DNA from: Escherichia phage SelmaRatti
Reading direction: 5' to 3' (one strand)
Length of the DNA stretch: 64,000 nucleotides
Sequence record: MZ501103
A program made the position numbers and the translations under genes. This document shows positions 32,656 through 61,729 of the stretch, one piece after another. The stretch's first letter is position 1. Each line of letters opens with the position of its first letter. The notes beneath the pieces were generated by a model. The model ran no database searches, had not been told where the DNA came from, and saw nothing but the letters and a program-made list of their open reading frames with translations.

Positions 32656-33149
32656 AATTTTATTCTAAGTCTAGGAATTTCAGGCTCCTCTTGATGGACT
32701 TGGTAAATAACCGGGCTATTATTTACTAGAATATAGCTTATATACGCTGGAACATAGGATAATACAAATGGATAAGGTACTTTAGCCACATAGCATTGGT
32801 ATTTTCCGTTATAAATTCTAGCCGAATGCAAAACTTTAGAGGTGGCAACATCATAGAACGTAGTTTTCTTCCAGTTAATAAGATTTCCATCAGAATCTAT
32901 AAATTGGCTACGCTTTGACCCAACTAATTGAGACAACATTGATATTCTACCTCTAATAGGATAGAGCTTGTACGGTAATTCCTTCCGTTTCTCAAATAGA
33001 ATAAGTCTACGTTGAGAAAAAGTGCCAGGCAACTTCCTGTTATCTAACACATATTTATTATATCTTGTTGTAATTACGGAATAATCACCTTCTTGCTCAA
33101 TTGATACAAACGCCCGTAAAGCATATACGGGCAATTTGAAATCAAGCAC
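32652..33149 (-). CDS. hypothetical protein
   Basis: 165-aa ORF, ATGA-coupled to helicase start. Confidence 0.45.
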   Translation of the reverse strand: MLDFKLPVYALRAFVSIEQEGDYSVITTRYNKYVLDNRKLPGTFSQRRLILFEKRKELPYKLYPIRGRISMLSQLVGSKRSQFIDSDGNLINWKKTTFYDVATSKVLHSARIYNGKYQCYVAKVPYPFVLSYVPAYISYILVNNSPVIYQVHQEEPEIPRLRIKL

Positions 33150-36100
33150 CTAAAATCCTTTTCACATTATCCAGATCTTTACATACAGCAATAAACTTAT
33201 CATCCTTGTACTTGCTGTGGTCTGGATGCTCTTTATCCATTGCAGCTAACTTCTTATACTCGAAATCTGCATCGAGTAATACACCCTTAACATAACGAGT
33301 ATACTCATCATCATCAATACAAGCGATTGATGGATGCTGCTTCTTCATCTTACCACAAGAGTAGTCACGAGAACCTCCAGCTTCAGAATCAGAATCAATA
33401 CCAATCGGACAACCAGGAATACTGATACCACGGTCTTTCTGAATATTACGAATCAGGATTTCATTGTATTGGTCGATCAAATCCTCACGAACAATAGCAA
33501 CTACGGAGTCGTGAACTAGCATAACAATCTTCATCTCTTGTTCTAGGCCAAGAGAAATGATCTCATTATCTGCATCTACAGCACCTAAAAGGAGACTATC
33601 AGAAGAAGCAGACTGAATGATTGCGTTAAATCCAGAACGGATTTCTTCACCTTGAACACCACGGTCTTCGGAGTGGATATTATGCAGACGACGTTTACGA
33701 CCAAAGTGACTGTAGATAAATCCATGATTCTTGATCTGATCATGGCACTTATCAATCCAACGCTTAAGCTGCGAGAACTGACCGAAGTAAGTTTCAATGT
33801 ACTCTTTAGCATCTGCAACAGTACACTCTACAAACGGTTCGCCTGTCTTAGCAGCCTGCTCCAGAAGAGCTTCGTTAACAGAATGAGCTACTTTAGATGG
33901 GCCAGAACCATACAAAATACCAAAGGTAATTGCTTTAGCTGCTTGACGCAGAGCTGGGAATAGCTTTTTAACATCACGAGGTTCGCATTGGAGCTTAAAT
34001 ACCATGTGTGCGATGTTAGAGTGGAAGTCAGGGTATTTATCAGGTTCATTTCTCATGTTGATAAATACTTGTTGCATATTTCTATCACCAGATAGAACAG
34101 CAGCATAATAAACTTCCGCAGTTGTTAAGTCCCATGCAATTACACGGTATCCAGGTGGTGCAACTACACAACCCTTGATAATAGATTCATCACGAGGTAA
34201 CTGTTGAAGGTTCAGTTTACCAGAAGAACTCAGACGACCAGAGGTAGTCATGTGTTCATGGAAGCCAGTACGAATGCAACCATCAGCATCAATACTCAGT
34301 AGAATCTTCTCAACATAAGTAGAGATCAGCTTAGTCAGCTTACGAATCTCTAGCAGAGTTTTAGCAATTGGATGCTGCGTAGCCAGTTCATTTAGAGCTT
34401 CTGCATCTGTAGAGTCTGCTCCAGTATCCGTCAATTTACCTGTTGGAGTTAAGCCAACATAATCAAACAGAAGAACACGTAGCTGCTTAACAGAGTTAGG
34501 ATTAAACGCTTCATTCTGGTCTTTCTCTAGCTGAACGACTTCTGGATAAGTATACAGTTTCTCACGAGCCTTATTCAGGTTATGGGTTAACTGGTACTGT
34601 GCTTCTTTCAAGCGATCAATAGAAATTGGTACACCACGATCCTCAACACGCTGGAGAAATACACAACCAGGCATTAGAACATCATAATACAGACTACAAA
34701 GTTTTTCATTCTTCTCAATTTTTGGTAAGAAGAAATTGTGCAAACGTATGGTGGCATCTGTATCTTTACAGTTGTGAACTACACCAACTTTAGTTACAAA
34801 GTTATGATTATCTTTTACATCTATGCACCAACTGGTAGAGTAACCTCTTCTAGAAGCTGGAACTATCCAATCCTCAATCCCATACACTTCTGCGTAGTAG
34901 TACTTAGATGTTGAAAAATCCCAAGTTCCTATTCCTACTAAATGCTTGAATCTTTCTGGCACCTTGTAAGCCATAGAGCTATGCATATATGGAGCAATCA
35001 AAGGGAATAGTTCTTCATTATCTAATACAAAGAACTGATTATTTTCTCCATCGTTATGGTAGTGTGCTGTAACGCCTAGATTTTTACACCATTCTATGAA
35101 ATTTTGCTGCTCTTCTCTACAATCAGCAACTGTTCTAGACCAAATGCGTGCATTTCCTTGTGGCAGGGTACCAGCATCTTGATACCAAATAGCTAGTGCT
35201 TTTTCATCTAACCCTTCTAGATTTTTCTTAGTAATTTTTAACTTATACTTTGTAGTATTATCTCGCACCTCTAAGGTAGAGAATAAGTCAGAATACTCAG
35301 AGGTATATGGGAAACTATACGTATATGCTTTTTTATCTCCCTTTGTAGAAACACTAAGAGTTGGTGTTTCTACTTGAGAAGCTGCCTTAAAATCTAGATA
35401 CTCTTTATGCGCTTCTGACTGTGTCAGTTGTAGACCAGCGCCCCATTTATTTCTAGATACCAGAGCACCATCCCCAAATAGGGATGCCATTAATACTTGC
35501 TTACTATCAGATGGTAAAGCAATTTCTTCAGTTTGGATTTTATCCTGTCCTGGAATAATATCTTGTACTTCTATGTATCCATTCTGAGTTAATACCCTAT
35601 GGTCTGGTGTAAATACTGGACCATTAATAGTACCACTAGAGTTTCTTTTCTGAGATTTAACTACTAACTTCTTCCATTTTTTGGATTTATGTTCATTTTT
35701 ATACCATCCAGTAATAGGTTTGTTCTCAAATTGCCCAGTTGATTCGTTGAATGATACTACAGCTTCTGTAGATTTGGTACGAACAAGTTCCCCAATAGTC
35801 TTCCAATTCCCTGAAGCCATCTTAACTTGGGAATCGTGAGTAAGACATGCATAAGGCCACATAATATCAAACGGAATTAAATCATAGGTGAAATCTTCTT
35901 TCTTGATTTTATGTGCTTTGCAGTAATCATCTTTGAACTTATCTAGTTCGAAGTCATAGTCACCCATATCTGTATACTTCATTGCTAGAGATTTCAAGCC
36001 ATGAGTACCACGACGTTCATCTAGAACATAGTGCTGCAACATGGTATCATGGAGCCTGCGTTCTTTATGTGCTTTATCAAAGGTAAGTCCCAGATGGTAC

Positions 36101-36786
36101 TTATAAAAGTGCATATCAAACTTCAAGTTGTGAAAAACAATAGTGTGGTTTTCACTATCCAGAATTTTCTGGAGGTAATATACTGCAACCTCTGTGAGAC
36201 AATCAGAATCTATATATACACCCTGATACTCTTGGTGAGAAATAGAAACACCAAGCAAATAACCATCTCGACAGTATAGTGCTGAGGTTTCGGAGTCGAA
36301 TGCGATAGGTCCGATAACCATATTATACACCATCTTGATATATTCTTCCGCCTCGTCAGGGTCAGTAATAGGACGGTAATCACCAGCTTTTGCAATCTTC
36401 TCACGACCATTGATAATATCGTGGATATTCTCTACTGTTGCATCAAAAACTGGTTTCATTTCAGGCTTAAAGTGTAACTGGGCTGGGCTGATACTCGCAA
36501 TCCAGTTAGCATATCCATTATACTCTACACGTTTACCAGTATAGTCACCAATGCCTTTCTTACCTGCGAAGTACAGGAAAGGTTCAGCACCTACTAGTAT
36601 AACAAAATCATAATCATTCGGATCAAATGGGTTTTCCGGAGTCCCGATAGTAATATGCTTTTTGAGCAAACGACCGGATAACTTCTCGTTACACATATGG
36701 AATACATCAACTTCCTCGCCGTATAGCTGGAAATGTTTATCATAACGAGTGTTATTTAGAGCTTTATCAACTACTGCGATTTTCAA
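33142..36786 (-). CDS. family-A DNA polymerase with 3'-5' exonuclease domain, interrupted by an intein
   Basis: 1214 aa; exo motif IAFDSETS, polymerase motifs RVIAWDLTTAEV and MLVHDS; TTG start with GAGGAG RBS; 359-aa insertion with intein hallmarks. Confidence 0.9.
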   Translation of the reverse strand: MKIAVVDKALNNTRYDKHFQLYGEEVDVFHMCNEKLSGRLLKKHITIGTPENPFDPNDYDFVILVGAEPFLYFAGKKGIGDYTGKRVEYNGYANWIASISPAQLHFKPEMKPVFDATVENIHDIINGREKIAKAGDYRPITDPDEAEEYIKMVYNMVIGPIAFDSETSALYCRDGYLLGVSISHQEYQGVYIDSDCLTEVAVYYLQKILDSENHTIVFHNLKFDMHFYKYHLGLTFDKAHKERRLHDTMLQHYVLDERRGTHGLKSLAMKYTDMGDYDFELDKFKDDYCKAHKIKKEDFTYDLIPFDIMWPYACLTHDSQVKMASGNWKTIGELVRTKSTEAVVSFNESTGQFENKPITGWYKNEHKSKKWKKLVVKSQKRNSSGTINGPVFTPDHRVLTQNGYIEVQDIIPGQDKIQTEEIALPSDSKQVLMASLFGDGALVSRNKWGAGLQLTQSEAHKEYLDFKAASQVETPTLSVSTKGDKKAYTYSFPYTSEYSDLFSTLEVRDNTTKYKLKITKKNLEGLDEKALAIWYQDAGTLPQGNARIWSRTVADCREEQQNFIEWCKNLGVTAHYHNDGENNQFFVLDNEELFPLIAPYMHSSMAYKVPERFKHLVGIGTWDFSTSKYYYAEVYGIEDWIVPASRRGYSTSWCIDVKDNHNFVTKVGVVHNCKDTDATIRLHNFFLPKIEKNEKLCSLYYDVLMPGCVFLQRVEDRGVPISIDRLKEAQYQLTHNLNKAREKLYTYPEVVQLEKDQNEAFNPNSVKQLRVLLFDYVGLTPTGKLTDTGADSTDAEALNELATQHPIAKTLLEIRKLTKLISTYVEKILLSIDADGCIRTGFHEHMTTSGRLSSSGKLNLQQLPRDESIIKGCVVAPPGYRVIAWDLTTAEVYYAAVLSGDRNMQQVFINMRNEPDKYPDFHSNIAHMVFKLQCEPRDVKKLFPALRQAAKAITFGILYGSGPSKVAHSVNEALLEQAAKTGEPFVECTVADAKEYIETYFGQFSQLKRWIDKCHDQIKNHGFIYSHFGRKRRLHNIHSEDRGVQGEEIRSGFNAIIQSASSDSLLLGAVDADNEIISLGLEQEMKIVMLVHDSVVAIVREDLIDQYNEILIRNIQKDRGISIPGCPIGIDSDSEAGGSRDYSCGKMKKQHPSIACIDDDEYTRYVKGVLLDADFEYKKLAAMDKEHPDHSKYKDDKFIAVCKDLDNVKRILGA
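34771..35847 (-). mobile_element. intein with LAGLIDADG homing endonuclease domain inside DNA polymerase (residues 314-672)
   Basis: Begins with Cys after MWPYA, ends VVHN followed by Cys; LAGLIDADG-like LMASLFGDGAL and LAIWYQDAGTL; block F-like WCIDVKDNHNFVT. Confidence 0.8.
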
Positions 36787-49625: not shown

Positions 49626-50075
49626 TTACACCTTAAATTGTTGTAAGGATTTACACATTTCAATATCTGGGCTAAATTCTAGCATATAGCTAACAGCTTT
49701 TAAATCTTGAAGATTTATCCCAGTCCTACCGTTGACTATAACCGTTGGATACTGATACATCATAGCACCAGCACGCTCAATAAGGTCATCAACGTTAGTA
49801 GTCAAATTTACTACTTGACCAGGATATTTCTTATACCATTCCCCAATACGCAAGTGTGCAAGGTTAGGTTCAACAGTTTCTAGCTCTTCACGTCGCTTGT
49901 TGTAAAACATATGGGTTTTATGATAAAAGTTACCACGAAAGGCATGAATATTACATACCTCTTCTAAGTCATAATCATCCCACAATGCTTTACCACTAGC
50001 AGTATCAGTACGGAAGGCTCGTACACCACTTTCAACACTCAAACCTACACCACTGATAATAATTAATCTACGCAT
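49626..50075 (-). CDS. Sir2-like (sirtuin N-terminal half) NAD-binding protein, truncated
   Basis: ISGVGLSVESGVRAFR resembles sirtuin GAGIS..SGI..FR; LW, FY..R.E motifs; NLTTNVDDLIERAG resembles ITQNID.LH.RAG; no zinc ribbon or catalytic HG. Confidence 0.5.
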   Translation of the reverse strand: MRRLIIISGVGLSVESGVRAFRTDTASGKALWDDYDLEEVCNIHAFRGNFYHKTHMFYNKRREELETVEPNLAHLRIGEWYKKYPGQVVNLTTNVDDLIERAGAMMYQYPTVIVNGRTGINLQDLKAVSYMLEFSPDIEMCKSLQQFKV

Positions 50076-50289: not shown

Positions 50290-50461
50290 AAAGTTTCTCC
50301 TCTAGTTCCATAACACGATTTTCATAAGAGGCACGCAACTTTTCAATTGCCAGTGCACGCACTGTAACCTCATTAGAATTAATAGCTAATTGGGCCAGAT
50401 CTTCTGTTTCCATACGTCCGTTGTAAATTAAGCGATATTTAAGATGTTTTACGTTTTTCAT
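50255..50461 (-). CDS. hypothetical protein
   Basis: 68-aa ORF. Confidence 0.4.
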   Translation of the reverse strand: MKNVKHLKYRLIYNGRMETEDLAQLAINSNEVTVRALAIEKLRASYENRVMELEEKLYGILEADATRQ

Positions 50462-50817
50462 ACTTTTAGCTCCGCCCCAATATCCTCATAGAAGTAATCG
50501 TAGTAAACTTGCTTAATATGATGCTTAATAACAGAGGAGAAATCCTCTGTGCCATTAGAGGTAACATTAAATACTTGTAAGTGGTTCCAATACACAAATT
50601 CTAGAGTCTCTTTTAAGTCTTCAGGTTCTTCGTATATAGGATTATAGACAGTAATATCTAATTCTTGCTCTACAAAGTCGCCTAGTAATGTAGGATACCC
50701 AATACCTTCTAGTAATGAGTAATCACCCGTAGCAGCAAAAATAGCTTCCTGAATAGTATCTACCCCTAAGTGATAATGTCCTAACTTAGATACAACAATA
50801 AATGGTTTTAGTTCCAT
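50458..50817 (-). CDS. hypothetical protein
   Basis: ATG at 50817 with GAGGAGGG RBS directly downstream of promoter; ORF-track N-terminal 12 aa are promoter/leader. Confidence 0.5.
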   Translation of the reverse strand: MELKPFIVVSKLGHYHLGVDTIQEAIFAATGDYSLLEGIGYPTLLGDFVEQELDITVYNPIYEEPEDLKETLEFVYWNHLQVFNVTSNGTEDFSSVIKHHIKQVYYDYFYEDIGAELKV

Positions 50818-50844
50818 ATACCCTCCTCTCAAATTTATAAATCT

Positions 50845-50873
50845 ATTATACATATATTTTTAGCTGAAAGCAA
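50845..50873 (-). promoter_or_regulatory. T5-type early promoter (TTGCTT-17-TATAAT)
   Basis: reverse complement TTGCTT...TATAATAGATTTATAAATTTGAGAGGAGGG then ATG. Confidence 0.7.
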
Positions 50874-50907
50874 ATAAAATAAAAGCCAGGTCGACTAGCA
50901 ACCTGGC
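50872..50907 (-). terminator. rho-independent terminator after nrdD
   Basis: 7-bp stem gccaggt/acctggc then TTTTATTTTATTT on - strand. Confidence 0.6.
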
Positions 50908-50915
50908 TGATTAGC

Positions 50916-52742
50916 TTATTTAAGATTTAAGTGTTTTACTCTACCAAGCACTTCTTTTTGTTTCCCAGAATTGAAAGGCCTACTGCCCGGGGATCCCAGG
51001 TACCCGCAAACCCTACGTGTAACCTCTATTTCTTCAGATCCACAACCCGGACATACAAACCCACGTTCAGAAGCAACAGATTCACCCATATATCCGCAGT
51101 TGAAACACTCATCAATTGGTATATTAACACCAATATAATGGCTACATTCTAGCCCCTTATCCACCACATACTCAAGAGCTTTGTGGAACTTTTTCATTTG
51201 AGGTAGTTCCACAAATGATATATTACCACCATTAGCTATTTTGGTAAAATGAGCTTCGTACTCAAATTTAGTATCTGGGGCTACTTTCTCTCTTACGTCC
51301 AAATGGTGACTATTAGTAAGATAGCCTTTATCTGTTAACCAAGAATACTCTGGGAACCTACGTTCTAGTAATTTATTAAAACGATTACATAGAGACTCAC
51401 TAGGAGTAGCATACAAGCTAAACCCAAGATTAGTCTCATTAGCTTTAACTTCGCAACGATTTTTTAGGTGAGTGAGAACTTCCTCTGTAAATTCAATACA
51501 ATCCCTATGGGTTTGTGGTAGACCAAACATTATTTGGCACATCTCATAGACCCCAATGTATCCAAGAGATACAGAAGATCTACCCTCAAAAATAGGCCAT
51601 ACATACTCTTCCCCATCTAAACGCACACCAAAACCCCCGTGCATATAAAGAATAGGGGCTTGTTTAGCCTTCACTTTCTTAAGTCTATTTAAGAAAAAAT
51701 CATGAGCTTCAAAAGCCTCATCCACATATTTGTCCAGAATATCCCAGAAATCTTCAAAAACCCCATCTGCCTCAGCAGCAACCATAGGTAGATTAATAGA
51801 CACTACACCTAAATTATTGCGCCCTGCAATTTCTCCGGAGGGGATAGCAGATAAAAAGCTACGACAACCCATAGGTGCTTTAAAATCACCAGTAACAGCT
51901 ACAACTTTCTCGTAACTTAAATAGTCCGGGTACATACGGGTAGCAGAACACTCAAGTGCTAGCTGTTTTATATCGTAGTTAGGGTCGCCTGGATTTTTAT
52001 TTAACCCTTCTTTAACTGAGAATACTAGTTTAGGGAAGATAGGGGTTGACTCAGCAGCACCTAAACCTTTAATACGGTTTTGGAGGATGGCTTTCTGAAT
52101 CATCCTTTCCTCCCACCCCTGTCCTAGCCCAAAGCCAAGCGTAACAAAAGGAGTCTGTCCATTAGAGTTAAATAATGAATTAGTTTCATACTCTAGGGCT
52201 TGGAATGCGTCATAACACTCTTTTTCAGTAAGTTCAGTAGCATATACAGCAGCTTTCCTTTCATCCTTGAGCCAACGTAGACCACGACCCAGATGTTTAT
52301 TGTAAGACTTTCTGACATACGGGGCTAGAACCTCATCGATACGATCAATAGAGGTGCCACCATACTGAGCACCAGATACTTGGGCAATAATCTGAGCAGT
52401 GATTGCACATGCAGTAGTTATGGATTTAGGAGTTTCAATATTTGCATTACCAATTTTAGTACCATTCTTCAGCATGCTACCAAGGTCTACTAAGCAACAG
52501 TTAGTGTACCCCTGTGCTCTGTAATCCATATCATGAATGTGTATCTTACCTAGATTATGGGCGTCTAACAGGTGTTTAGGTAACTCTTGCGATACTAAAT
52601 ACTTGTTAACTTCCCCAGCTAATAAGTCTCTTTGAGTATGGAACATCTCACTAGGTTTATTAGCATTATTATGCTGTAAATCCTTATCCGCAGTTAGAGT
52701 GAGCAGACCTTTGCAATTCTCAATTAATTCATTCTCTGTCAT
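50916..52742 (-). CDS. nrdD: anaerobic ribonucleoside-triphosphate reductase
   Basis: 608 aa; C-terminal glycyl-radical motif RVCGYLG; zinc site CFNCGY...CPGCGS. Confidence 0.9.
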   Translation of the reverse strand: MTENELIENCKGLLTLTADKDLQHNNANKPSEMFHTQRDLLAGEVNKYLVSQELPKHLLDAHNLGKIHIHDMDYRAQGYTNCCLVDLGSMLKNGTKIGNANIETPKSITTACAITAQIIAQVSGAQYGGTSIDRIDEVLAPYVRKSYNKHLGRGLRWLKDERKAAVYATELTEKECYDAFQALEYETNSLFNSNGQTPFVTLGFGLGQGWEERMIQKAILQNRIKGLGAAESTPIFPKLVFSVKEGLNKNPGDPNYDIKQLALECSATRMYPDYLSYEKVVAVTGDFKAPMGCRSFLSAIPSGEIAGRNNLGVVSINLPMVAAEADGVFEDFWDILDKYVDEAFEAHDFFLNRLKKVKAKQAPILYMHGGFGVRLDGEEYVWPIFEGRSSVSLGYIGVYEMCQIMFGLPQTHRDCIEFTEEVLTHLKNRCEVKANETNLGFSLYATPSESLCNRFNKLLERRFPEYSWLTDKGYLTNSHHLDVREKVAPDTKFEYEAHFTKIANGGNISFVELPQMKKFHKALEYVVDKGLECSHYIGVNIPIDECFNCGYMGESVASERGFVCPGCGSEEIEVTRRVCGYLGSPGSRPFNSGKQKEVLGRVKHLNLK

Positions 52743-53592
52743 TGATTATTTCCTCGATAAACTTTATAGCTACTTTTGGTTCAATATTGAAGAATTCCGT
52801 AGCACCGTCAAAATCTTTGTACTGGCAATTCTGCTCTTTAAAGTAGTTATGGGCTAATTTTTCTATTAGAACTGCACCACTATATTCTCCAATTTCAAAT
52901 ACTTTAATTATTTCCAAATCAGTAAGGTGGCTACTAGACCTAATATGTAGAAGTCTACGCTCTGGATTGTTAGATCTACCTATTTTAACTCCGTGTGATG
53001 GGCTATGCATAACATATATCTTAGTACTTTCTAAATCTCTATAACTACAGTAAGGACAACCATTCCCTCTTAATACAGATCCTGGAGTAGCTTCCCACCT
53101 ATGCCCTGCACCACAAAGAAAGGCGGTCTTAGTATTCGCATTACTATACTCACCCACTATTCTGATATTTCTGGCAGCAAGACGATCATTTATAGTATTA
53201 ACACTAAGTTTCTGTTTATTAGCAGCACAAGATGGGCAGCCACTACCTCTATTAATTATACTATTAAGTGTAGTAGCCCACTCATGACCACAAACACACC
53301 TAAATTTAGTATTTATATCAGCACTATTTTTATAGCCGTTCAACAATGTAATACCTCTGTCCTGTAATATAGTATTAATTTTATCAATATCTAGTTTACG
53401 GCTACTAATAGAGCAAGTATGACACTTGGTCTTTCCATTCCTAATGGCGTCAAATTTAGCTGTCCATTGATGACCGTATTCGCACTGATACGTATGCCTA
53501 TACCTAGAATTTTGATATGGCTTATCCACCATAGTAAAACCACGCTCGGCTAGGCATTTATCTACTTCTTCTTGAGTTAATTTTTTCGGCAT
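52729..53592 (-). CDS. zinc-ribbon (x3) + T5orf172 (GIY-YIG-like) domain protein, putative homing endonuclease
   Basis: Three tandem ~50-aa C..GH.W...G..CP.C repeats then KIYVMHSPSHGVKIGRSNNPERRL block; ATG at 53592 with GGAG RBS. Confidence 0.6.
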   Translation of the reverse strand: MPKKLTQEEVDKCLAERGFTMVDKPYQNSRYRHTYQCEYGHQWTAKFDAIRNGKTKCHTCSISSRKLDIDKINTILQDRGITLLNGYKNSADINTKFRCVCGHEWATTLNSIINRGSGCPSCAANKQKLSVNTINDRLAARNIRIVGEYSNANTKTAFLCGAGHRWEATPGSVLRGNGCPYCSYRDLESTKIYVMHSPSHGVKIGRSNNPERRLLHIRSSSHLTDLEIIKVFEIGEYSGAVLIEKLAHNYFKEQNCQYKDFDGATEFFNIEPKVAIKFIEEIINDRE

Positions 53593-53620
53593 TCCACTTC
53601 TCCACAGAATTTTTACACCT

Positions 53621-53649
53621 ATTATACTAAACATTATCCACTATGTCAA
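53621..53649 (-). promoter_or_regulatory. sigma70 consensus promoter (TTGACA-17-TATAAT) for the triple zinc-ribbon endonuclease gene
   Basis: -10 53621-53626, -35 53644-53649 on - strand; divergent from phoH promoter. Confidence 0.6.
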
Positions 53650-53786
53650 TTAAAATTTTCTTTCGCCATCTAATACTGTAATATTTCGCGTATAAATAAA
53701 TGATTATCTAGTATCATATTTCTACCTTTATAAGCAAGTAAATTTTTTATTTAAAAGCAATATCATAGGTTTATTTAAAATTATAC

Positions 53787-53815: not shown

Positions 53816-53891
53816 ATATTTGTAAGTTGATAAACAAGATCTCTTTGTTGATCCTCTGTTAGAAGCGAAGTACACTATAGGAGTGTTATTT

Positions 53892-54644
53892 ATGGGAAAA
53901 GCACGTCAAAAAAGAGAGAACCGCAATGGTTCAAGAAAGCGTGGCAACAAATATGAGAATAACGTAATTCAGGCTGATTTTTCTAATGATTACGCTAACC
54001 CAGTTGCTAAATCCCTAGTAGGTAAAAACCGAGAGCAAAAATCATATATCAATATGATCAAGAACAACACAGTGACTGTGGGTATTGGTGAGCCAGGTAC
54101 TGGTAAAACCTTTATCCCGTCTGTTCTTGCAGCTCAGGAACTCGTAGACATTCACTCAGATATTGAGCAAGTGATTCTAGTCCGTCCTAATGAACCTCTA
54201 GGTAAGTCTCTTGGTATGCTTCCTGGTGATCTAGCAGAAAAGCTAGAGCCTTGGTTAGAGCCAATAGCTGATGGTATGAAATGGGCCATCGGTGATCATG
54301 CCTATAATGGGTATGTCGAACGTCAGAAAATTAAATTTTTGGCTGTAGAACATGCTCGTGGCAGAACTTTCAACAACTCCTATGTAATTGTCGATGAAGC
54401 TCAGAATATTTCCGTTGAGGCAATGATTTGTCTCCTAACTCGTGTAGGACAAGACTGCCGTTTAATTATCTGTGGAGATATAGCTCAGAAAGACATTAAA
54501 GGTGACTCAGGTCTAGCACTCCTTATGGAAGTCTATGAAAAATACGAAAATGCCCCATTCTCAATGATCGAATTGATTGATAACGTTCGTTCTGTTGAGT
54601 CTAAAGCATTCTATGATATTTTTAAAGACATGGGGAAGGTGTAA
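53892..54644 (+). CDS. phoH: PhoH-like ATPase
   Basis: Walker A GEPGTGKTF, Walker B IVDEAQN; ATG at 53892 after TAGGAG. Confidence 0.85.
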   Translation: MGKARQKRENRNGSRKRGNKYENNVIQADFSNDYANPVAKSLVGKNREQKSYINMIKNNTVTVGIGEPGTGKTFIPSVLAAQELVDIHSDIEQVILVRPNEPLGKSLGMLPGDLAEKLEPWLEPIADGMKWAIGDHAYNGYVERQKIKFLAVEHARGRTFNNSYVIVDEAQNISVEAMICLLTRVGQDCRLIICGDIAQKDIKGDSGLALLMEVYEKYENAPFSMIELIDNVRSVESKAFYDIFKDMGKV

Positions 54645-54843: not shown

Positions 54844-54920
54844 GTGGCCAAAAACTAGACTGACAACACAGAAGGCCTGGGTATGAAAATGCTCGGGCCT
54901 TTTCTATCAGAAAATTTTAT

Positions 54921-54949
54921 TTGCCAAATGACTGAGAATAAAGTAAACT
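54921..54949 (+). promoter_or_regulatory. possible promoter (TTGCCA-17-TAAACT) upstream of nrdA
   Basis: weaker match to sigma70 consensus. Confidence 0.35.
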
Positions 54950-54987
54950 ATTTCCTAAATCCTGATAACTATAAAAAGGAAAGCCAA

Positions 54988-57900
54988 ATGAGCCATCGCA
55001 TTGAAAAAGTAATTAAACGTGACGGTACTGTAGAAGACTTTGCTCCTGAAAAACTCAATGGTTGGGCAGAGTATGGTTGCAAAACAGTTGATGTAAGTTG
55101 GTCAGCCATTACTATGGCTGCTCAAAAAACCCTACCTAAAGGGGTTGTAGATTCCGACACTCTTATGGACGCATTAATTAAAGCTGCTGAAAGTCTTATC
55201 AAAGATAACCCAGCATACGATGTGCCAGCAAAGGAATTACGTCTTGCGCAAATGCGTAAGCGCCTTTATGACTCTTTCGAACCACCTTCTCTACGCTTCT
55301 TCCATGACCACATGGTTAGCGTAGGTACATGGGAAGACATGAGTGCATGGATTACCGATGAGCAATTTGAAGCTCTGAATCAGGTTATCGACCATGATCG
55401 TGACCGTCTTTTTACTAGTGGTGGGCTGAAGCAGTTCTTTGATAAGTATTCACGTCGTAACATAGCCACTGGTGAAATTTACGAAACCCCTCAATTCGCC
55501 TATATGGGTATGGCAATGGCGATGTTATCTCAACCTAACTGGACAATTCTAGATGCAATCGATCTCTACAATGCAATGTCGCTCCACAAGATCAACGTTC
55601 CTACGCCGCCATTGGTTGGCTTGCGCTCTAGTGACCGTGGATTTGCTAGTTGCTGCCTCGTGGATTCCACTGACACATTGGATTCAATCGACACAGCAGA
55701 GCACATCGTCTTCAAAATGGTCGCAGCCAGAGCGGGAATCGGGTATCATCTTGAAAGCAGATCAATTGCTGATCCGGTGCGAAATGGGGCATTCCCGCAT
55801 TCCGGAAAACTGCCATATTATCGACACATTGACCGCTCAGTAAAGGCCAATACTCAGCAAACTCGTGGTGGTTCTGCTACAGTGTCTTATCCATACTTCG
55901 ACCCTGAAATCATTCAATTGATGCAGGTTAAGCAACAACGTGCTACAGATGAGAATAAAATCGATAAGATGGATTATTCTCTGAGCTTTAACAATCTTTT
56001 GTTAAAACGTTATCTTAAAAACGAAGATATTACGCTAATGTCATACTTCTATGCTCCAGAAGTTCATGAAGCGTTTTATAGTGATGACGAGGCTAAATTT
56101 GAAGAAATCTACGTGGCAGCGGAGAAACGTGTGGCATCTCTTACAAAAATCGACCACGAAGGAAAAACAGTTCCAGCAGCTCCTAAAGTCTCTGCAAAAG
56201 AAATCCTAGATACTTGGCTACGTATCCGAATGGAAACAGGACGTATGTACGCTCACCACATCGGGGAATCTAATCGTCACGGTAACTTTCTTGATCCAAT
56301 CCGTATGACTAACCTTTGTGTAGCTCCAGAAACAAAAATTTTAACCAAAAATGGTAACATAGAGATTATTGATTTAGTTGGTAAAGAAGTAGAGATTTGG
56401 AACGGGCAAGAATGGTCAACAGTTATCCCTGCTAAAACTGGGGAAGCTCAGGAGTTGATGAAAATCACATTCTCTGATGGATCTACTATTGAATCTACTC
56501 TTTATCATAAGTTCTACCACCAGCCCAAATATGTAAGAGAGGATCGTAGTACCTCCTTCAAACAGGGTCTAGAAGAGGTACGAGCAGTAGACTTGCAAGT
56601 AGGTATGAAAATGCCTAAATTTAGTAATCCTATTGTAGATCATGGAAATATGGTACTAAAATCTCCTTATACTAACGGTTTCTTCACTGGAGATGGAACT
56701 TATGGAAGACATGGAGAACCTAAGCTGTACTTCTATGAAAAAGGAGGCAAACTACCATTAGTGGATAAAATTGACGCAAAGATTCAGGGAAGTGGATTAC
56801 TGGACAGCACAGGTAGACTGAGTTATATTGTTAAGTCTGATTTAATGCCGAAGTATTTTGTACCTGGCCCAGAATACACTATTGATAGCCGTATCAAATG
56901 GTTAGAGGGATATTTAGATGCAGATGGCTGCATACAGAAAAATGGCACAACCCCTAGTATTGTGGTTGCTTCGGCAGAGCCTGATTTTCTAAGTAAAGTG
57001 AAGGATTTGTTACTAGAATTGGGGATTACTAGCAAGATTATTTTAGGACGCCAAGAAGGTGACTACGAGTTACCAGATGGTACTGGTAGTAGTAGTAAAC
57101 TATACCACTGCAAGGAGACTAGTAGGCTTATTGTGGGGAGTAGTGGCTTCTGGAAACTTAAAGATTTAGGACTCTCTTTGGATAAAGAGAAACTCTTAAA
57201 CCTAACACGCCCCAATAGAGACGCAACCCGTTTTGTAACTGTAACTAACGTTGAGTTTACTGGTCGTATTAGTGATACCTATTGCTTTACAGAACCTAAA
57301 TTAAACTTGGGTGTATTTAATGGCATTTTAGCTGGTAACTGTGTAGAGATTACTCAGCCTACACGCCCGTTCCACCACATCACAGAGCTGTATAAGACAA
57401 AAGAGCAGCTTGATCAAATGAAGCCGGAGGATATTGGTGAAGTATCTCTGTGTAACTTAGGTGGTGTTGTACTTGGACGCATGGAATCTCTGGCTGAGTG
57501 GGAAAAAACTTGCTACATCCTTCTGAAATTCGTTGATACAATTATTGAAATTCAGGATTATCCGTTCCCAACTATGGAATATACGGCTAAGAAACGTCGT
57601 AATGTTGGTATTGGCCTGATGAACGCAGCAGGTGCAATGGCAGCAGAAGGTCTGGCTTATGAAGGTATTGAAGCCCGTAACTGGATTCACCGTGAGGCTG
57701 AAAAACTGTCTTACTTCCTGCATAAAGCCTCTGTACGCCTAGCTAAAGAACAGGGCGCATGTGAGTGGTTTGATCGTACTAAACCATCTAAAGGAATTCT
57801 GGTAATCGACACTTACAAGAAAACTGTTGATGAACTGGTATCCGTAGGTCTAGAAATGGATTGGGAATCTCTGCGTGCAGATATTCTGAAATACGGTATG

Positions 57901-58344
57901 CGTAACTCTGTTCTGACTGCGCAGATGCCTGGAGAAAGCTCTTCTGTACTATTGGGTGTTACCAACTCAATTGAGCCACCTCGTAAGATTGTATCTATCA
58001 AGGGTAGTGCAGTGAATAAAGTAATTGCAATTGCTCCAGGTGCAACCGATTGGGATACTCTCATGAGCTATAAACTGGCCTATGATATTGATCGCACTGA
58101 GTGGATCAAGTGGAACGCCGTTTACCAAAAATTCTTGAGTCAGTCATCAAGTTTCCAGATGTATTATGATTACTCTAAATTCGAGAATGAAATCATCCCT
58201 GGCCCAGTAGTAGTTCGTGACTTTATGACTGCGGTTAAGTATGGTATAAAAACCTGGTATTATGCTAACTTTAACACTGCGAATGGTGGAGGAGCTGGTG
58301 AAGAGGCGGCAACAGGTTGTGCATCAGGCGGTTGTCAGTTATAA
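54988..58344 (+). CDS. nrdA: ribonucleoside-diphosphate reductase alpha subunit, interrupted by an intein
   Basis: N-terminal ATP-cone (VIKRDGTVEDF); active-site NxCxE split as TNL | intein | CVEI; C-terminal Cys pair; start set at ATG 54988 with AAGGAAAG RBS. Confidence 0.9.
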   Translation: MSHRIEKVIKRDGTVEDFAPEKLNGWAEYGCKTVDVSWSAITMAAQKTLPKGVVDSDTLMDALIKAAESLIKDNPAYDVPAKELRLAQMRKRLYDSFEPPSLRFFHDHMVSVGTWEDMSAWITDEQFEALNQVIDHDRDRLFTSGGLKQFFDKYSRRNIATGEIYETPQFAYMGMAMAMLSQPNWTILDAIDLYNAMSLHKINVPTPPLVGLRSSDRGFASCCLVDSTDTLDSIDTAEHIVFKMVAARAGIGYHLESRSIADPVRNGAFPHSGKLPYYRHIDRSVKANTQQTRGGSATVSYPYFDPEIIQLMQVKQQRATDENKIDKMDYSLSFNNLLLKRYLKNEDITLMSYFYAPEVHEAFYSDDEAKFEEIYVAAEKRVASLTKIDHEGKTVPAAPKVSAKEILDTWLRIRMETGRMYAHHIGESNRHGNFLDPIRMTNLCVAPETKILTKNGNIEIIDLVGKEVEIWNGQEWSTVIPAKTGEAQELMKITFSDGSTIESTLYHKFYHQPKYVREDRSTSFKQGLEEVRAVDLQVGMKMPKFSNPIVDHGNMVLKSPYTNGFFTGDGTYGRHGEPKLYFYEKGGKLPLVDKIDAKIQGSGLLDSTGRLSYIVKSDLMPKYFVPGPEYTIDSRIKWLEGYLDADGCIQKNGTTPSIVVASAEPDFLSKVKDLLLELGITSKIILGRQEGDYELPDGTGSSSKLYHCKETSRLIVGSSGFWKLKDLGLSLDKEKLLNLTRPNRDATRFVTVTNVEFTGRISDTYCFTEPKLNLGVFNGILAGNCVEITQPTRPFHHITELYKTKEQLDQMKPEDIGEVSLCNLGGVVLGRMESLAEWEKTCYILLKFVDTIIEIQDYPFPTMEYTAKKRRNVGIGLMNAAGAMAAEGLAYEGIEARNWIHREAEKLSYFLHKASVRLAKEQGACEWFDRTKPSKGILVIDTYKKTVDELVSVGLEMDWESLRADILKYGMRNSVLTAQMPGESSSVLLGVTNSIEPPRKIVSIKGSAVNKVIAIAPGATDWDTLMSYKLAYDIDRTEWIKWNAVYQKFLSQSSSFQMYYDYSKFENEIIPGPVVVRDFMTAVKYGIKTWYYANFNTANGGGAGEEAATGCASGGCQL
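56317..57339 (+). mobile_element. intein with LAGLIDADG homing endonuclease domain inside NrdA (341 aa)
   Basis: Starts CVAPETKIL, LAGLIDADG-like NGFFTGDGTYG and WLEGYLDADGCIQ, block F-like DTYCFTEP, ends NGILAGN followed by Cys. Confidence 0.8.
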
Positions 58345-58450: not shown

Positions 58451-59596
58451 ATGACTACTTTACTAAACCTGAATTGGGATCATACTAATGCTGACCTTTT
58501 CCTGGGAGATTCTCTCGGTATCGCAGATTATGTACGTGTAGCACATCCAGAACTAGAACGTCTGGCGTTATTAGCTCGCTCTCAATTTTGGACTGAAACT
58601 GAAATCAGTCTGGAAGCAGATAAGAAACAATGGCCTAATCTCCCACGAGAAATTCAGGAAATTACCCTCCTGAACTTAGCATGGCAGACTCAAACAGATT
58701 CTTTCATTAGTCGCGCGCCTGAAGCAGCTATTATGCCGCTTGTAAGTCGTCCAGAATTGGAAGGCATGCTCAAACAGTGGAGCTATTTTGAAGACCTGCA
58801 TAGTCGTGCTTATAGCAATATTATTCGTAATGTTCTGACTGATCCAGCAGAATTTATTGATTCTGTAACCAAAAACCAAGAAGCATTCGCACGCATCGCT
58901 GATTCTGTTGAACTATTCGATGAACTGTACCAGTTAGGTCAGTATTTCATCGCAGTACGCGATCATCGTGGTGACAATACATATCCAGAAACTGAGTTCC
59001 CTGAAGTTAAACGTGAAACTCAGGCTAAGCTATTAGACGCTTACTTTGCGATCTATGGTCTGGAAGCAATGCAGTTTTACGCATCCTTTGCATGTACCTT
59101 TGCATTAGCAGAGAACGATATTCTGCAAGGTATTGCTAAAAATCTGCAATTAATCGCTAAAGATGAAGCTCTGCACACTCAGATGTCCAAAGCAATCATC
59201 CAGATTATGTTCCAGCAGTTTGACAAAGATCTGGTGGATGAAGCAGTGGCTAAAGCACCAGCACAGCTCCTGAAAACTCTGAAAACTGAAATTGAATGGG
59301 GTCACTTCATTTTCAAAGGTCGTAGTCTTATTGGCTTGAATGCAGAACTTCTAGAAGAATATCTGTACTTTGTGGGGCGTAATGCATTTATGCACATCGG
59401 TGTAGAATGGCCTAGTCATTTACCAGCAATCACTAAGAACCCCATTCCGTGGATCATGAACTGGCTGGATACCACTTCTTTACAGCCTGCTCCACAAGAA
59501 ATCCAGATCGGTGCAGCATATCGTGTAGGTCAAGTCACCGAAACCTCTACTGATACTCTGAAAGATCTGGGTAATGAATTTGGAGATTTCTTATGA
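58451..59596 (+). CDS. nrdB: ribonucleoside-diphosphate reductase beta subunit
   Basis: 381 aa; di-iron ligand blocks (E..H) and radical-Tyr region; own promoter and RBS. Confidence 0.9.
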   Translation: MTTLLNLNWDHTNADLFLGDSLGIADYVRVAHPELERLALLARSQFWTETEISLEADKKQWPNLPREIQEITLLNLAWQTQTDSFISRAPEAAIMPLVSRPELEGMLKQWSYFEDLHSRAYSNIIRNVLTDPAEFIDSVTKNQEAFARIADSVELFDELYQLGQYFIAVRDHRGDNTYPETEFPEVKRETQAKLLDAYFAIYGLEAMQFYASFACTFALAENDILQGIAKNLQLIAKDEALHTQMSKAIIQIMFQQFDKDLVDEAVAKAPAQLLKTLKTEIEWGHFIFKGRSLIGLNAELLEEYLYFVGRNAFMHIGVEWPSHLPAITKNPIPWIMNWLDTTSLQPAPQEIQIGAAYRVGQVTETSTDTLKDLGNEFGDFL

Positions 59597-60126: not shown

Positions 60127-60959
60127 TGAAACAGTATATTGATTTAATTAATAAAGTTTTATCTGAGGGAACTCACGTGTCTGACCGGACAGGTGTAGGT
60201 ACTATCTCTTCCCTAAATAATATTGTCTCTTTTGACCTTACTAAAGGGTTTCCAGCAGTAACAACAAAAGCACTAGCGTGGAAATCCGTGGTAGGGGAGT
60301 TGTTGTGGTTCCTCTCAGGATCCACTAACTTGTATGATCTAGAAGAGTATACTCATGGGACTAGAGGAGAGAAGCGTACTATCTGGCATCCTAATTATGA
60401 AAAACAAGGGGTCGAAAAAGGCTACACTGAAGGTTATCTGGGATATATTTATGGGAAAACCTGGAGAGACTTCTTCGGCACAGACCAGATTATGAAACTA
60501 ATCGAGGATATCAAATCCGATACTTTTCATAATAGAAAAATGGTAGTCTCAGCATGGAATCCTGCAAAACTTGACGACGTTGTGCTTTCCCCCTGCCACG
60601 TAATGTTCTCCGTAAACCAAAGAGATGGACACCTACACTTAACATGGTACCAGGTTAGTTGTGATGTATTTCTGGGATTACCATTTAATATAGCTAGCTA
60701 TGCCTTACTCTGTCATATTTTAGCTGCACTCACAGGAAAGAAACCTGGGTCAGTAACGGGACATCTTGTGGACACTCATATTTACTTAAATCACCTAGAC
60801 CAAGTAAAGGAGCAAGTAACTAGAGAACCCCTGGAGCTACCTAGACTAGTGCTACCAAACTTCTCTTCCTTAGAAGATCTTCTGGCCCTAACACCCAAAG
60901 ACTTTATCCTGGAAGAATATAAACATCACCCTAAATTAACTGGTAAAATGGCAGCATGA
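60126..60959 (+). CDS. thyA: thymidylate synthase
   Basis: 277 aa; GELLWFL and catalytic SPCH region. Confidence 0.9.
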   Translation: MKQYIDLINKVLSEGTHVSDRTGVGTISSLNNIVSFDLTKGFPAVTTKALAWKSVVGELLWFLSGSTNLYDLEEYTHGTRGEKRTIWHPNYEKQGVEKGYTEGYLGYIYGKTWRDFFGTDQIMKLIEDIKSDTFHNRKMVVSAWNPAKLDDVVLSPCHVMFSVNQRDGHLHLTWYQVSCDVFLGLPFNIASYALLCHILAALTGKKPGSVTGHLVDTHIYLNHLDQVKEQVTREPLELPRLVLPNFSSLEDLLALTPKDFILEEYKHHPKLTGKMAA

Positions 60960-61729
60960 TTTACATCTATAGTATAACTCAGTTATCTACTGGAAGACAG
61001 TACGTTGGATCGACTAAGGATATTGAGGCTAGAAAGCGTAAACATTTTTACTCACTAAGTAAGGGGAACCACCATAACGCTTTTCTACAGAGAGCTTATG
61101 ATAAAACCGGAAAGCAAGACTTTGTATTTGACATCTTAGATACTACTGAAGAAGTAGATCAGCAGTTCCTACTAGAAGAAGAGTGGGCTAAGGAGCTGGG
61201 AGCAGAGTTCAACATAGGTAGTTACGGTGGTGGGGATAATCTCACAAATAATCCTCGAAGAGAGGAGATTATTAAGAGAATTGGTGAGAGTGTTAGAAAG
61301 CATATAGCGTCCTTATCTGAAGAAGAAAGAAAAGCCCGGTGGAGTAGACCAGGTGAGCTAAACTATAACTGGAAGGGAGGAGTATCTACTCGCTCAAAAA
61401 CATGTATTGATTGTGGTTCCCTACTAGCCCTTAATAACACTAATGGGGAGTACTGTAATAGTTGCAGGGATCGAACAGGTGAGAATAACCCCTTTTATGG
61501 GAAGAAGCATACTGAAGAGGCTCTGAGCAAGATGTCTCAGGCTTCTAAGCAGTACCAAGAAAGTATTAGAGAGGGAAAGACACCCCTTCCTACCCACTTT
61601 AAGGCAGTACGTGTGGATGGTGTGGAATACGTTAGTATGAGTGCAGCAGCTATAGCATTGGGGTGTTCCACAGCGACTATAGGTAATAGAGTTCGTTCAC
61701 CTAAGTTCCCGACGTATGAGTTTGTATAA
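60956..61729 (+). CDS. GIY-YIG homing endonuclease with C-terminal zinc finger/NUMOD-like region
   Basis: N-terminal IYIYSITQLSTGRQYVGST...R...H GIY-YIG motif; CIDCGS...CNSC; ATGA overlap with thyA. Confidence 0.75.
   Translation: MIYIYSITQLSTGRQYVGSTKDIEARKRKHFYSLSKGNHHNAFLQRAYDKTGKQDFVFDILDTTEEVDQQFLLEEEWAKELGAEFNIGSYGGGDNLTNNPRREEIIKRIGESVRKHIASLSEEERKARWSRPGELNYNWKGGVSTRSKTCIDCGSLLALNNTNGEYCNSCRDRTGENNPFYGKKHTEEALSKMSQASKQYQESIREGKTPLPTHFKAVRVDGVEYVSMSAAAIALGCSTATIGNRVRSPKFPTYEFV

Follow-up and report, generated by a model that had tools for sequence, protein, structure and literature searches.

In Escherichia coli and Salmonella, nrdG lies directly 3′ of nrdD, the NrdD protein carries a 97-aa N-terminal ATP-cone, and expression of the two genes depends on FNR. 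Phage T4 also has its own NrdG: only the mobC endonuclease gene stands between its nrdD, which contains a group I intron, and nrdG. Within the Demerecviridae, Vibrio phages of the Ermolyevavirinae (e.g., the Thalassavirus Dax; pVp-1, JSF10, and phi 3) have the gene order nrdD-nrdB-nrdA-nrdG. Their NrdD has 724 aa and an ATP-cone, and their NrdG matches Fer4_12 (E = 4.4e-53) and is 57% identical to that of E. coli.

Phages can also carry nrdD without nrdG. This arrangement was catalogued in T5-type phages between 2009 and 2013. Dwivedi et al. 2013 (PMC3653736) listed T5, SPC35, and EPS7 as nrdD-only phages, and the tally of RNRdb gives 30 phage NrdD versus 21 NrdG. The GrcA/YfiD "spare part" proteins (Y06I of T4, T5.056 of T5) resemble this case, being glycyl-radical proteins of phages that come without a phage activase and must therefore depend on a radical-SAM activase of the host; the host PFL activase reportedly activates Y06I. 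They differ in belonging to another enzyme family with another activase (PflA).

Here, we analyzed a stretch of 64,000 nucleotides of Escherichia phage SelmaRatti (MZ501103), hereafter called the window. It is DNA of a T5-like phage (Demerecviridae, Markadamsvirinae) and carries nrdD, phoH, nrdA, and nrdB, which places it in the category "nrdD-only with class Ia nrdAB" of Dwivedi et al. It is thus not a new kind of system.

An intact nrdD gene without ATP-cone

The initial annotation had assigned an NrdD to the window with coordinates that are exact (Table 1). The gene starts with an ATG, with GAGGA just 5′ of it. Its product matches Pfam NRDD (PF13597) over its full length (E = 9.7e-158, profile positions 2-562 of 562), as well as Gly_radical (E = 2.2e-13) and phrog_487 (E = 1.9e-270). 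The closest solved structures are 9D3X and T4 NrdD 1H78. Identity is 52% with E. coli NrdD, about 52% with the Vibrio phage proteins, which also have class Ia genes nearby, and 51% with T4 NrdD (605 aa; structures 1H78 and 1H7A), which likewise is a class III enzyme without ATP-cone. Since the alignment with E. coli NrdD starts only at residue 98 of the latter, the phage protein lacks the ATP-cone, and a Pfam scan found no match to this domain in NrdD.

Table 1. Features of the nrdD region, in coordinates of the window
Feature	Coordinates	Strand	Details
ORF, 131 aa, function unknown	50458..50853	-	phrog_11748; no Pfam family
Intrinsic terminator	50884..50908	-	terminator scan; 10-bp stem with 6 GC pairs, then T-run
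nrdD, class III (anaerobic) ribonucleoside-triphosphate reductase, catalytic subunit	50916..52742	-	608 aa, without ATP-cone
Free-standing homing endonuclease gene	52729..53634	-	Pfam, PHROG; T5orf172/MUG113 nuclease with treble-clef zinc fingers
Sigma-70 consensus promoter (predicted)	53621..53649	-	promoter scan; TTGACA-17-TATAAT, 12/12 matches
phoH-like gene, divergent from nrdD	53883..54644	+	Pfam PhoH, E = 4.6e-61
nrdA, class Ia large subunit, intein-interrupted	54883..58344	+	Pfam Ribonuc_red_lgC, aa 255-1127
nrdB, class Ia small subunit	58451..59596	+	Pfam Ribonuc_red_sm, E = 2.6e-36

The gene is intact and retains all the catalytic, glycyl-radical, and zinc-site residues. The motif RRVCGYLG aligns to RVCGY of T4 (Gly580) and of E. 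coli, and the motifs TNCCLVDL, PMGCRSF, and GRNNLG align to their active-site counterparts in both proteins, which include the active-site cysteines and asparagine of T4 NrdD (Cys79, Cys290, and Asn311 in its numbering). Ahead of the radical loop there is a four-cysteine zinc ribbon (CFNCG...CPGCG, i.e., CxxC...CxxC); T4 NrdD shares this ribbon and the catalytic residues. At the glycyl-radical tail, the phage protein and those of E. coli and Salmonella differ very little (VTRRVCGYLGSP..RPFN.GKQ.EV..RVKHL). We predict from these features that the product is a functional anaerobic ribonucleotide reductase without ATP-cone.

Organization of the nrdD locus

The nrdD gene forms its own transcription unit, made of a consensus promoter, the homing endonuclease gene, nrdD, and a strong terminator. 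The predicted promoter probably drives both genes. The endonuclease ORF, which matches Pfam DUF4379, CapR, MUG113, and T5orf172 and endonuclease families of PHROG, overlaps the start of nrdD by 14 nt, and its true start is probably an ATG near 53592, downstream of the promoter. In the FNR-dependent host the situation differs: around the phage nrdD promoter we found no FNR box, and the number of FNR boxes over the whole window is at the level expected by chance. The terminator lies 8 nt past the nrdD stop codon and closes the transcription unit, so no downstream activase gene is cotranscribed with nrdD. The position that nrdG has in nrdDG operons is occupied by the 131-aa ORF.

T5 has the same locus. 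Its nrdD (T5.099) lies divergent from nrdB-nrdA-phoH, with an annotated promoter immediately 5′ and a terminator annotated at the equivalent site 3′, encodes no ATP-cone, and is accompanied by no nrdG. Beyond nrdD, both loci continue with small ORFs, Sir2 and DUF7415 genes, and the gene of an origin-binding protein. The divergent phoH/nrdD layout, an arrangement described before (PMC3653736), is common to T5, the Salmonella phage SP01, STyj5-1, My1, and Kpn13-P1. The endonuclease gene was found in SP01 and RN29 and is missing from T5, STyj5-1, Kpn13-P1, and My1. The nrdA gene measures 3462 bp in the window versus 2334 bp in SP01 and 2436 bp in T5, and its intein carries a LAGLIDADG domain (LAGLIDADG_3 at aa 672-758).

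Searches for an activase

The initial annotation had also stated that no radical-SAM ORF with a CxxxCxxC motif is visible in the window. Motif, tblastn, HMM, and cysteine-cluster scans all agree with this. The bare motif occurs at two places of the six-frame translation, 35378-35584 (+) and 21617-21925 (-), in short ORFs without Pfam match, each on the strand opposite to a long gene. E. coli NrdG had a best tblastn match of only E = 6 in the window, and an NrdG profile HMM one of only E = 9, versus 4e-83 for the positive controls. No plausible gene of the window has a three-cysteine cluster fit for a [4Fe-4S] radical-SAM site. Relaxed cysteine motifs and clusters, which could have revealed non-canonical Fe-S proteins, matched only antisense ORFs, endonucleases, and PhoH.

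Could nrdG be located elsewhere in the genome, as the initial annotation offered as one of two possibilities? The genomes of T5-like phages typically have 110-120 kb, which leaves about 45-55 kb outside the window, and in Dax, a Vibrio phage that also belongs to the Demerecviridae, 3 kb separate nrdD from nrdG, with nrdB and nrdA in between. Yet the complete genomes of SP01 (117.8 kb; the window corresponds to its coordinates 12586-76610) and T5 (121.75 kb) have no NrdG homologue by tblastn or HMM, no credible radical-SAM candidate, and no NrdG entry in their annotations. The HMM search covered 4654 six-frame ORFs from the window, the complete SP01, and residues 1-121000 of T5, whose final 750 bp fall within the right terminal repeat, a sequence identical to the left repeat according to the annotation; the best match other than the controls had E = 0.54. 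A complete class III system, with NrdD and its cognate NrdG in one genome, was thus found neither in the window nor in SP01 or T5.

The wider comparisons point the same way. Within 10 kb of nrdD, none of eight T5-like loci of IMG/VR has nrdG, whereas five non-T5 loci from the same search have it directly 3′ of nrdD. Synteny without nrdG is kept in Tequintavirus, in Epseptimavirus, in a Klebsiella T5-like phage, and in the Pectobacterium phage My1. In the phage collection, 2748 records have a match to NrdD, 517 have an NrdD that shares 60% identity or more with that of the window, and 2273 have a match to NrdG; 40 of the latter, taken as a spread sample, include no enterobacterial T5-like genome. 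The proteins closest to the NrdG of the Vibrio phages come exclusively from other Vibrio phages, and next in line is that of an unrelated Cronobacter phage; enterobacterial T5-like phages do not appear among them. These results, together with the published status of T5, SPC35, and EPS7, make an nrdG gene beyond the window highly improbable. Of the two possibilities, activation by a host enzyme would be the best remaining explanation.

Several look-alikes of NrdG were considered and rejected. The best match of the HMM search other than the controls was a 93-aa ORF directly 3′ of nrdD in SP01 and STyj5-1 (phrog_7953), which is missing from the window. When its single sequence was aligned to NrdG by hhalign, the probability was 13-66%, a score reached by 0 of 400 shuffles. 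However, the GG and GKDxWLW motifs are not kept in the 79-aa members of the family, and the profile-profile probability is 0.2%, which argues against a relic of nrdG; the likeness is a chance resemblance, as judged from these alignments. The 131-aa ORF of the window has no cysteine at all and aligns to NrdG with an hhalign probability of 0.1%. A 174-aa antisense ORF of T5 with a CxxxCxxC motif has no family match and is unlike radical-SAM enzymes.

The phage might instead encode an activator of NrdD that is not homologous to known ones and escapes recognition. There are numerous small ORFs without assigned function around nrdD, and one gene of the lineage has a suggestive motif: T5.055 (phrog_4499; 103 aa), which adjoins the gene of the GrcA-like protein in T5 and SP01, contains CICSCWMC and thus CxxxCxxC. 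But the genes of the window lack cysteine clusters of the kind that a [4Fe-4S] center needs. T5.055 itself, which is located outside the window, has no Pfam match and no resemblance to radical-SAM enzymes; we judge it too short and too basic for their fold, and its four cysteines look to us like a zinc knuckle. Three unrelated families fill the slot 3′ of nrdD across phages, so none of them is an obligatory partner. We therefore regard an unrecognized phage activator as very unlikely. Slightly less probable still is that one T5-like phage factor, e.g., T5.055, activates both NrdD and the GrcA-like protein in place of the host NrdG and PflA. The sequences show no likeness to a radical-SAM fold; were it true, a factor of the T5.055 type would be a minimal or non-canonical system of glycyl-radical activation.

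Selection and integrity of nrdD

An orphan catalytic subunit could be inactive as a reductase, either as a decaying remnant or because it was repurposed for a role without glycyl radical. Dwivedi et al. considered the functionality of reductases unknown in phages with incomplete gene suites. Moreover, NrdD of the T5 reference lacks about 50 aa through an in-frame deletion, among them the conserved GRSSVSLGYIG segment, and nrdD is therefore dispensable, at least in aerobic laboratory passage. The evolutionary data do not fit with decay. The dN/dS of nrdD is 0.013 versus SP01 and 0.019 versus RN29, with dS of 0.69-0.80, and that of the second, T5-type allele is 0.016 (STyj5-1 versus T5). Such very strong purifying selection implies that the gene is no relic. 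Full-length ORFs are present in hundreds of genomes from several genera. The radical glycine, both active-site cysteines, and all residues of the radical chemistry are kept, which a non-catalytic role would not have preserved together. Hence, an inactive NrdD seems unlikely.

The two alleles are quite divergent. Those of the window and of T5/STyj5-1 share 60-62% identity in protein and about 68% in DNA, whereas their flanks are 94-96% identical. The allele of the window is linked to the upstream homing endonuclease gene, which T5 lacks. The best database matches to the window are 92-97% identical in DNA, and an IMG/VR contig whose NrdD is 100% identical diverges from it in other places.

Proposed activation by the host NrdG

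We propose that this lineage has a functional NrdD without ATP-cone, expressed from its own promoter up to its own terminator, that has no activase of its own and would be activated by the NrdG of the host. Given the genomic evidence, we put the probability of this reading at roughly 70%. Most likely, the host NrdG would place the glycyl radical on the phage NrdD. It would come from E. coli or Salmonella cells that are already growing anaerobically at the time of infection, and the metabolism of the host would supply the rest of the system: flavodoxin for reducing power, SAM, and formate. Since T5 shuts off host gene expression (its protein A1 is annotated for degradation of host DNA and shutoff of host gene expression), NrdG would have to predate infection. 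Activated NrdD makes multiple turnovers without NrdG (PMC11226230), so that a small amount of activase can suffice for a large amount of NrdD. What the phage gains could be more of the catalytic subunit without ATP-cone, the domain that serves dATP inhibition in the reductases that have it. Activation by the host also seems to fit the very strong purifying selection under which nrdD evolves.

T5 and SP01 encode a GrcA-like glycyl-radical protein (T5.056 and gp111, respectively, with genes outside the window) and have no activase gene, a second case that points to reliance on host activases. It also raises the question of which host enzyme is involved. The host has several radical-SAM activases for glycyl-radical enzymes, and E. 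coli GrcA has exactly the RVSGYAV loop of the GrcA-like protein, which PflA would therefore serve; PflA or a paralogue could then activate the phage NrdD as well. Against this, glycyl-radical activases are described as specific for their cognate enzyme, and the radical loop and zinc domain of the phage protein (RRVCGYLG, four-Cys ribbon) are of the NrdD type, near E. coli NrdD and not PFL. RNRdb, too, terms NrdG a "specific activase." Activation by an enzyme of the PflA type is thus improbable, and NrdG would be the partner.

Can the host NrdG act on an NrdD that is only moderately similar to its own? The C-terminal zinc and glycyl-radical domain of NrdD is thought to contact NrdG (PMC4493059). 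Compared with E. coli, the protein of the window is 62% identical in this domain and 51% in the remainder, versus 47% and 60% for T4, which has its own NrdG. This argument is weak, because in Dax, which also has its own NrdG, the domain is even closer to that of E. coli (76%). A literature search returned no paper on activation of a T5-type NrdD by the NrdG of E. coli or Salmonella, nor on cross-activation between T4 and E. coli. T4 NrdD expressed in E. coli reportedly needed T4 NrdG; if this is correct, an identity of about 50-60% may not suffice for cross-activation.

Activation by the host NrdG would have consequences for the biology of these phages. The supply of DNA precursors to T5-like phages under anaerobiosis would hang on a protein that the host had made before it was infected, nrdG would be a host factor for anaerobic infection, and phage productivity in the gut and in anoxic niches would be tied to the earlier oxygen history of the host. 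It would also mean that an NrdG can serve an NrdD that shares just 52% identity with its native partner, unlike what is reported for T4. The strength of the purifying selection bears on the question, raised by Dwivedi et al., of whether incomplete sets of reductase genes are functional. T5-like phages are widely isolated for the biocontrol of Salmonella and E. coli.

An intact nrdD without nrdG

The initial annotation placed an NrdD in this window without a recognisable NrdG, and proposed that the phage uses the host activase or encodes its own elsewhere. The observation is correct. The Pfam NRDD family covers the protein end to end (E = 9.7e-158), and its motifs are complete: both active-site cysteines and the asparagine sit in TNCCLVDL, PMGCRSF and GRNNLG, the zinc ribbon has its four cysteines (CFNCG...CPGCG), and RRVCGYLG forms the radical loop. 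Its alignment to E. coli NrdD (52% identity) begins at E. coli residue 98, showing that the N-terminal ATP-cone is missing. The cone is also absent from T4 NrdD, which is 51% identical to the window protein and, with 9D3X, its nearest solved structure (1H78).

The absence of a radical-SAM ORF from the window held in every search. Only two bare CxxxCxxC strings turn up in the six-frame translation, each in a short ORF that lies antisense to a long gene and matches no family, and none of the plausible genes has cysteines clustered suitably for a radical-SAM [4Fe-4S] centre. The best match to E. coli NrdG by tblastn had E = 6, and the best to a profile HMM built from the NrdGs of E. coli, T4 and two Vibrio phages (controls score 4e-83) had E = 9.

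The promoter of the locus, near which no FNR box was found, precedes a free-standing homing endonuclease gene (T5orf172/MUG113 and treble-clef domains) whose stop codon and the nrdD start overlap by 14 nt; a GAGGA ribosome-binding site precedes the nrdD ATG by eight bases. Since a strong terminator directly follows nrdD, no activase gene is co-transcribed downstream. Promoter and terminator are annotated at equivalent positions in T5. The slot after the terminator is variable, with three unrelated families of small ORFs among T5-like phages, all without functional annotation: phrog_11748 in the window, T5 and My1, phrog_7953 in SP01 and STyj5-1, and phrog_20147 in RN29 and Kpn13-P1. The window's ORF has no similarity to NrdG. 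The top non-control NrdG HMM match, at chance level, was a 93-aa ORF of SP01 and STyj5-1 that directly follows nrdD, in the place taken by nrdG in nrdDG operons. Single-sequence hhalign against NrdG gave a probability of up to 66%, and none of 400 shuffles reached its score. We rejected it as an nrdG relic, because the family alignment shows that the NrdG-like motifs are not conserved and the profile-profile probability is 0.2%.

Features of the window and of related phages (L004, SP01; L008 and L009, T5; L014, RN29)
Feature	Sequence	Coordinates	Strand	Description
nrdD	window	50916-52742	-	608 aa; Pfam NRDD and Gly_radical
Sigma-70 promoter	window	53649-53621	-	perfect consensus, TTGACA-17-TATAAT
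Intrinsic terminator	window	50908-50884	-	strong; eight bases past nrdD stop
ORF after nrdD	window	50458-50853		131 aa; phrog_11748; no cysteine
Swapped cassette	window	50470-53700		nrdD and upstream homing endonuclease
Sir2-like ORF	window	49626-50075	-	149 aa; N-terminal half of Sir2 domain
Family A DNA polymerase	window	33142-36786	-	1214 aa
NrdA	window	54883-58344	+	1153 aa
Homing endonuclease	window	60956-61729	+	GIY-YIG/I-TevI-like; NUMOD3, I-TevI zinc finger
Other slot ORFs	L003; L014	24446-24727; 5927-6139
T5 reference NrdD (T5.099, NC_005859)	L009	9961-11685		574 aa
GrcA/YfiD-like "spare part" protein (T5.056; SP01 gp111)	L008; L004	27656-28024; 12358-12726		122 aa; Gly_radical E = 3.6e-18
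T5.055	L008	27263-27574		103 aa, basic; CICSCWMC; phrog_4499
T5.055 equivalent	L004	12799-13092		unannotated

nrdG in related phages

Could nrdG lie elsewhere in the SelmaRatti genome? The region around nrdD has 92-97% DNA identity to many Salmonella and E. coli T5-like phages (Demerecviridae, Markadamsvirinae), including Salmonella phages SP01, Stp1 and RN29 and Escherichia phages JLBYU43 and Gostya9. The window, equivalent to SP01 12586-76610, holds structural and replication genes and the nucleotide-metabolism cluster; it leaves out the early and tRNA region, as well as the terminal repeats, found in a typical T5-like genome of 110-120 kb. We examined SP01 whole (117,842 bp) and positions 1-121000 of T5 (121,750 bp), whose final 750 bp belong to the right terminal repeat, a copy of the left one according to its annotation. 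Tblastn and HMM searches found no NrdG homologue in either genome, nrdG is missing from both annotations, and the best non-control HMM match among 4654 six-frame ORFs had E = 0.54. An nrdG elsewhere in SelmaRatti is thus very improbable.

NrdG is likewise absent within 10 kb of nrdD at eight IMG/VR loci whose NrdD is 98-100% identical to the window's. The same search found nrdG immediately downstream of nrdD at five unrelated loci (NrdD 34-54% identical), so it detects the gene where present. An nrdG-free order (nrdB-nrdA-phoH, divergent nrdD, small ORFs, Sir2, two DUF7415 genes, origin-binding protein) is common to Tequintavirus (T5, SP01), Epseptimavirus (STyj5-1, RN29), a Klebsiella T5-like phage and Pectobacterium phage My1. 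In contrast, NrdG is encoded in the family's Vibrio-infecting subfamily, by Thalassavirus, Cetovirus, pVp-1 and the JSF10/phi 3 group alike. Phage Dax has the order nrdD-nrdB-nrdA-nrdG, a 724-aa NrdD with ATP-cone and an NrdG matching Fer4_12 at 4.4e-53. Hence, the enterobacterial branch is marked by having lost both nrdG and the ATP-cone.

The window adds a further example to a known pattern: RNRdb (2009) listed 30 phage NrdDs and 21 phage NrdGs, and Dwivedi et al. (PMC3653736) catalogued nrdD-only phages. In the phage collection, NrdD was matched in 2748 records and NrdG in 2273; the 517 records with NrdD at least 60% identical to the window's roughly equal this deficit, as a comparison of totals from two unjoined record lists. 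A 34.7-kb non-T5 viral contig (L025, IMGVR_UViG_3300020045_001293) encodes an NrdD 52% identical to the window's with no NrdG within 10 kb either side, and may represent another nrdD-only lineage.

Selection on nrdD

According to Dwivedi et al. (PMC3653736), it was not known whether phages with an incomplete set of reductase genes make functional enzymes, a question on which selection bears. Against SP01 and RN29, nrdD has dS of 0.69-0.80 and dN of 0.009-0.015 (dN/dS 0.013-0.019); the other T5-type allele is similar (0.016, STyj5-1 against T5). With full-length copies in hundreds of genomes, this speaks strongly against a decaying remnant. The T5 reference NrdD, 99% identical to that of STyj5-1, does point towards decay: an in-frame deletion of about 50 codons removes a segment (GRSSVSLGYIG...) conserved in all other NrdDs. 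Relaxed selection in aerobic laboratory passage may lie behind it. Given the selection and the motif conservation, a non-catalytic or decaying nrdD is unlikely.

Probable activation by the host

The best-supported explanation, and the most likely mechanism, is that host NrdG would install the glycyl radical of the phage NrdD. Activated NrdD makes multiple turnovers without NrdG (PMC11226230), so pre-existing host NrdG could serve the newly made enzyme. T5 protein A1 is annotated as degrading host DNA and shutting off host gene expression; NrdG would therefore be needed before infection, in cells already growing anaerobically, the same conditions in which NrdD would be useful. Without the ATP-cone, the phage NrdD, like that of T4, lacks the domain by which dATP inhibits cone-bearing reductases, and a plausible benefit is more catalytic subunit outside this feedback control. 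We found no report of activation of T5-type NrdD by host NrdG in the literature searched. In E. coli, T4 NrdD reportedly depended on T4 NrdG (Young et al. 1994).

The C-terminal zinc and glycyl-radical domain of NrdD is thought to face the activase (PMC4493059). In the window NrdD this domain shares 62% identity with E. coli, and the remainder of the protein 51%, whereas in T4, with its own NrdG, the values are 47% and 60%. The argument is only suggestive, because Dax, also with its own NrdG, scores 76%. Activation by another host activase, such as PflA, seems improbable, slightly more so than a non-functional nrdD.

T5 and SP01 also encode, outside the window equivalent, a GrcA/YfiD-like glycyl-radical protein, again without an activase, whose RVSGYAV loop is the same as the host's. 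The C-terminal 60 aa of this protein differ little from E. coli GrcA; databases label it "pyruvate formate-lyase" or "acetyltransferase-related". It appears to be a second case of this lineage relying on a host radical-SAM activase. A phage activator of NrdD not recognised as such is as improbable as a distant nrdG. Immediately downstream of the GrcA-like gene lies T5.055. No other annotated T5 protein contains a CxxxCxxC string; T5.055 shows no resemblance to radical-SAM proteins and probably represents a zinc knuckle.

Diverged nrdD alleles and mobile elements

Two diverged nrdD alleles occur in otherwise near-identical T5-like genomes. The window allele is 60-62% identical in protein and about 68% in DNA to that of T5 and STyj5-1, against 94-96% DNA identity in the flanks, and the upstream homing endonuclease gene, absent from both phages, occurs among the genomes compared only with the window's allele. 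By comparison with T5, STyj5-1 and RN29, nrdD and the endonuclease gene make up a swapped cassette.

NrdA and the DNA polymerase are about 340-360 aa longer than their SP01 and T5 versions and each has a LAGLIDADG endonuclease domain; the polymerase has a weak, sub-threshold Intein_splicing match, and both probably carry inteins. Directly after the thymidylate synthase gene, the GIY-YIG gene is one more of several mobile endonucleases in the nucleotide-metabolism cluster. Finally, the Sir2 genes of T5, STyj5-1 and RN29 measure 816-837 bp, longer than the window's Sir2-like ORF; judging by STyj5-1, the window lacks about 850 bp near position 49770.
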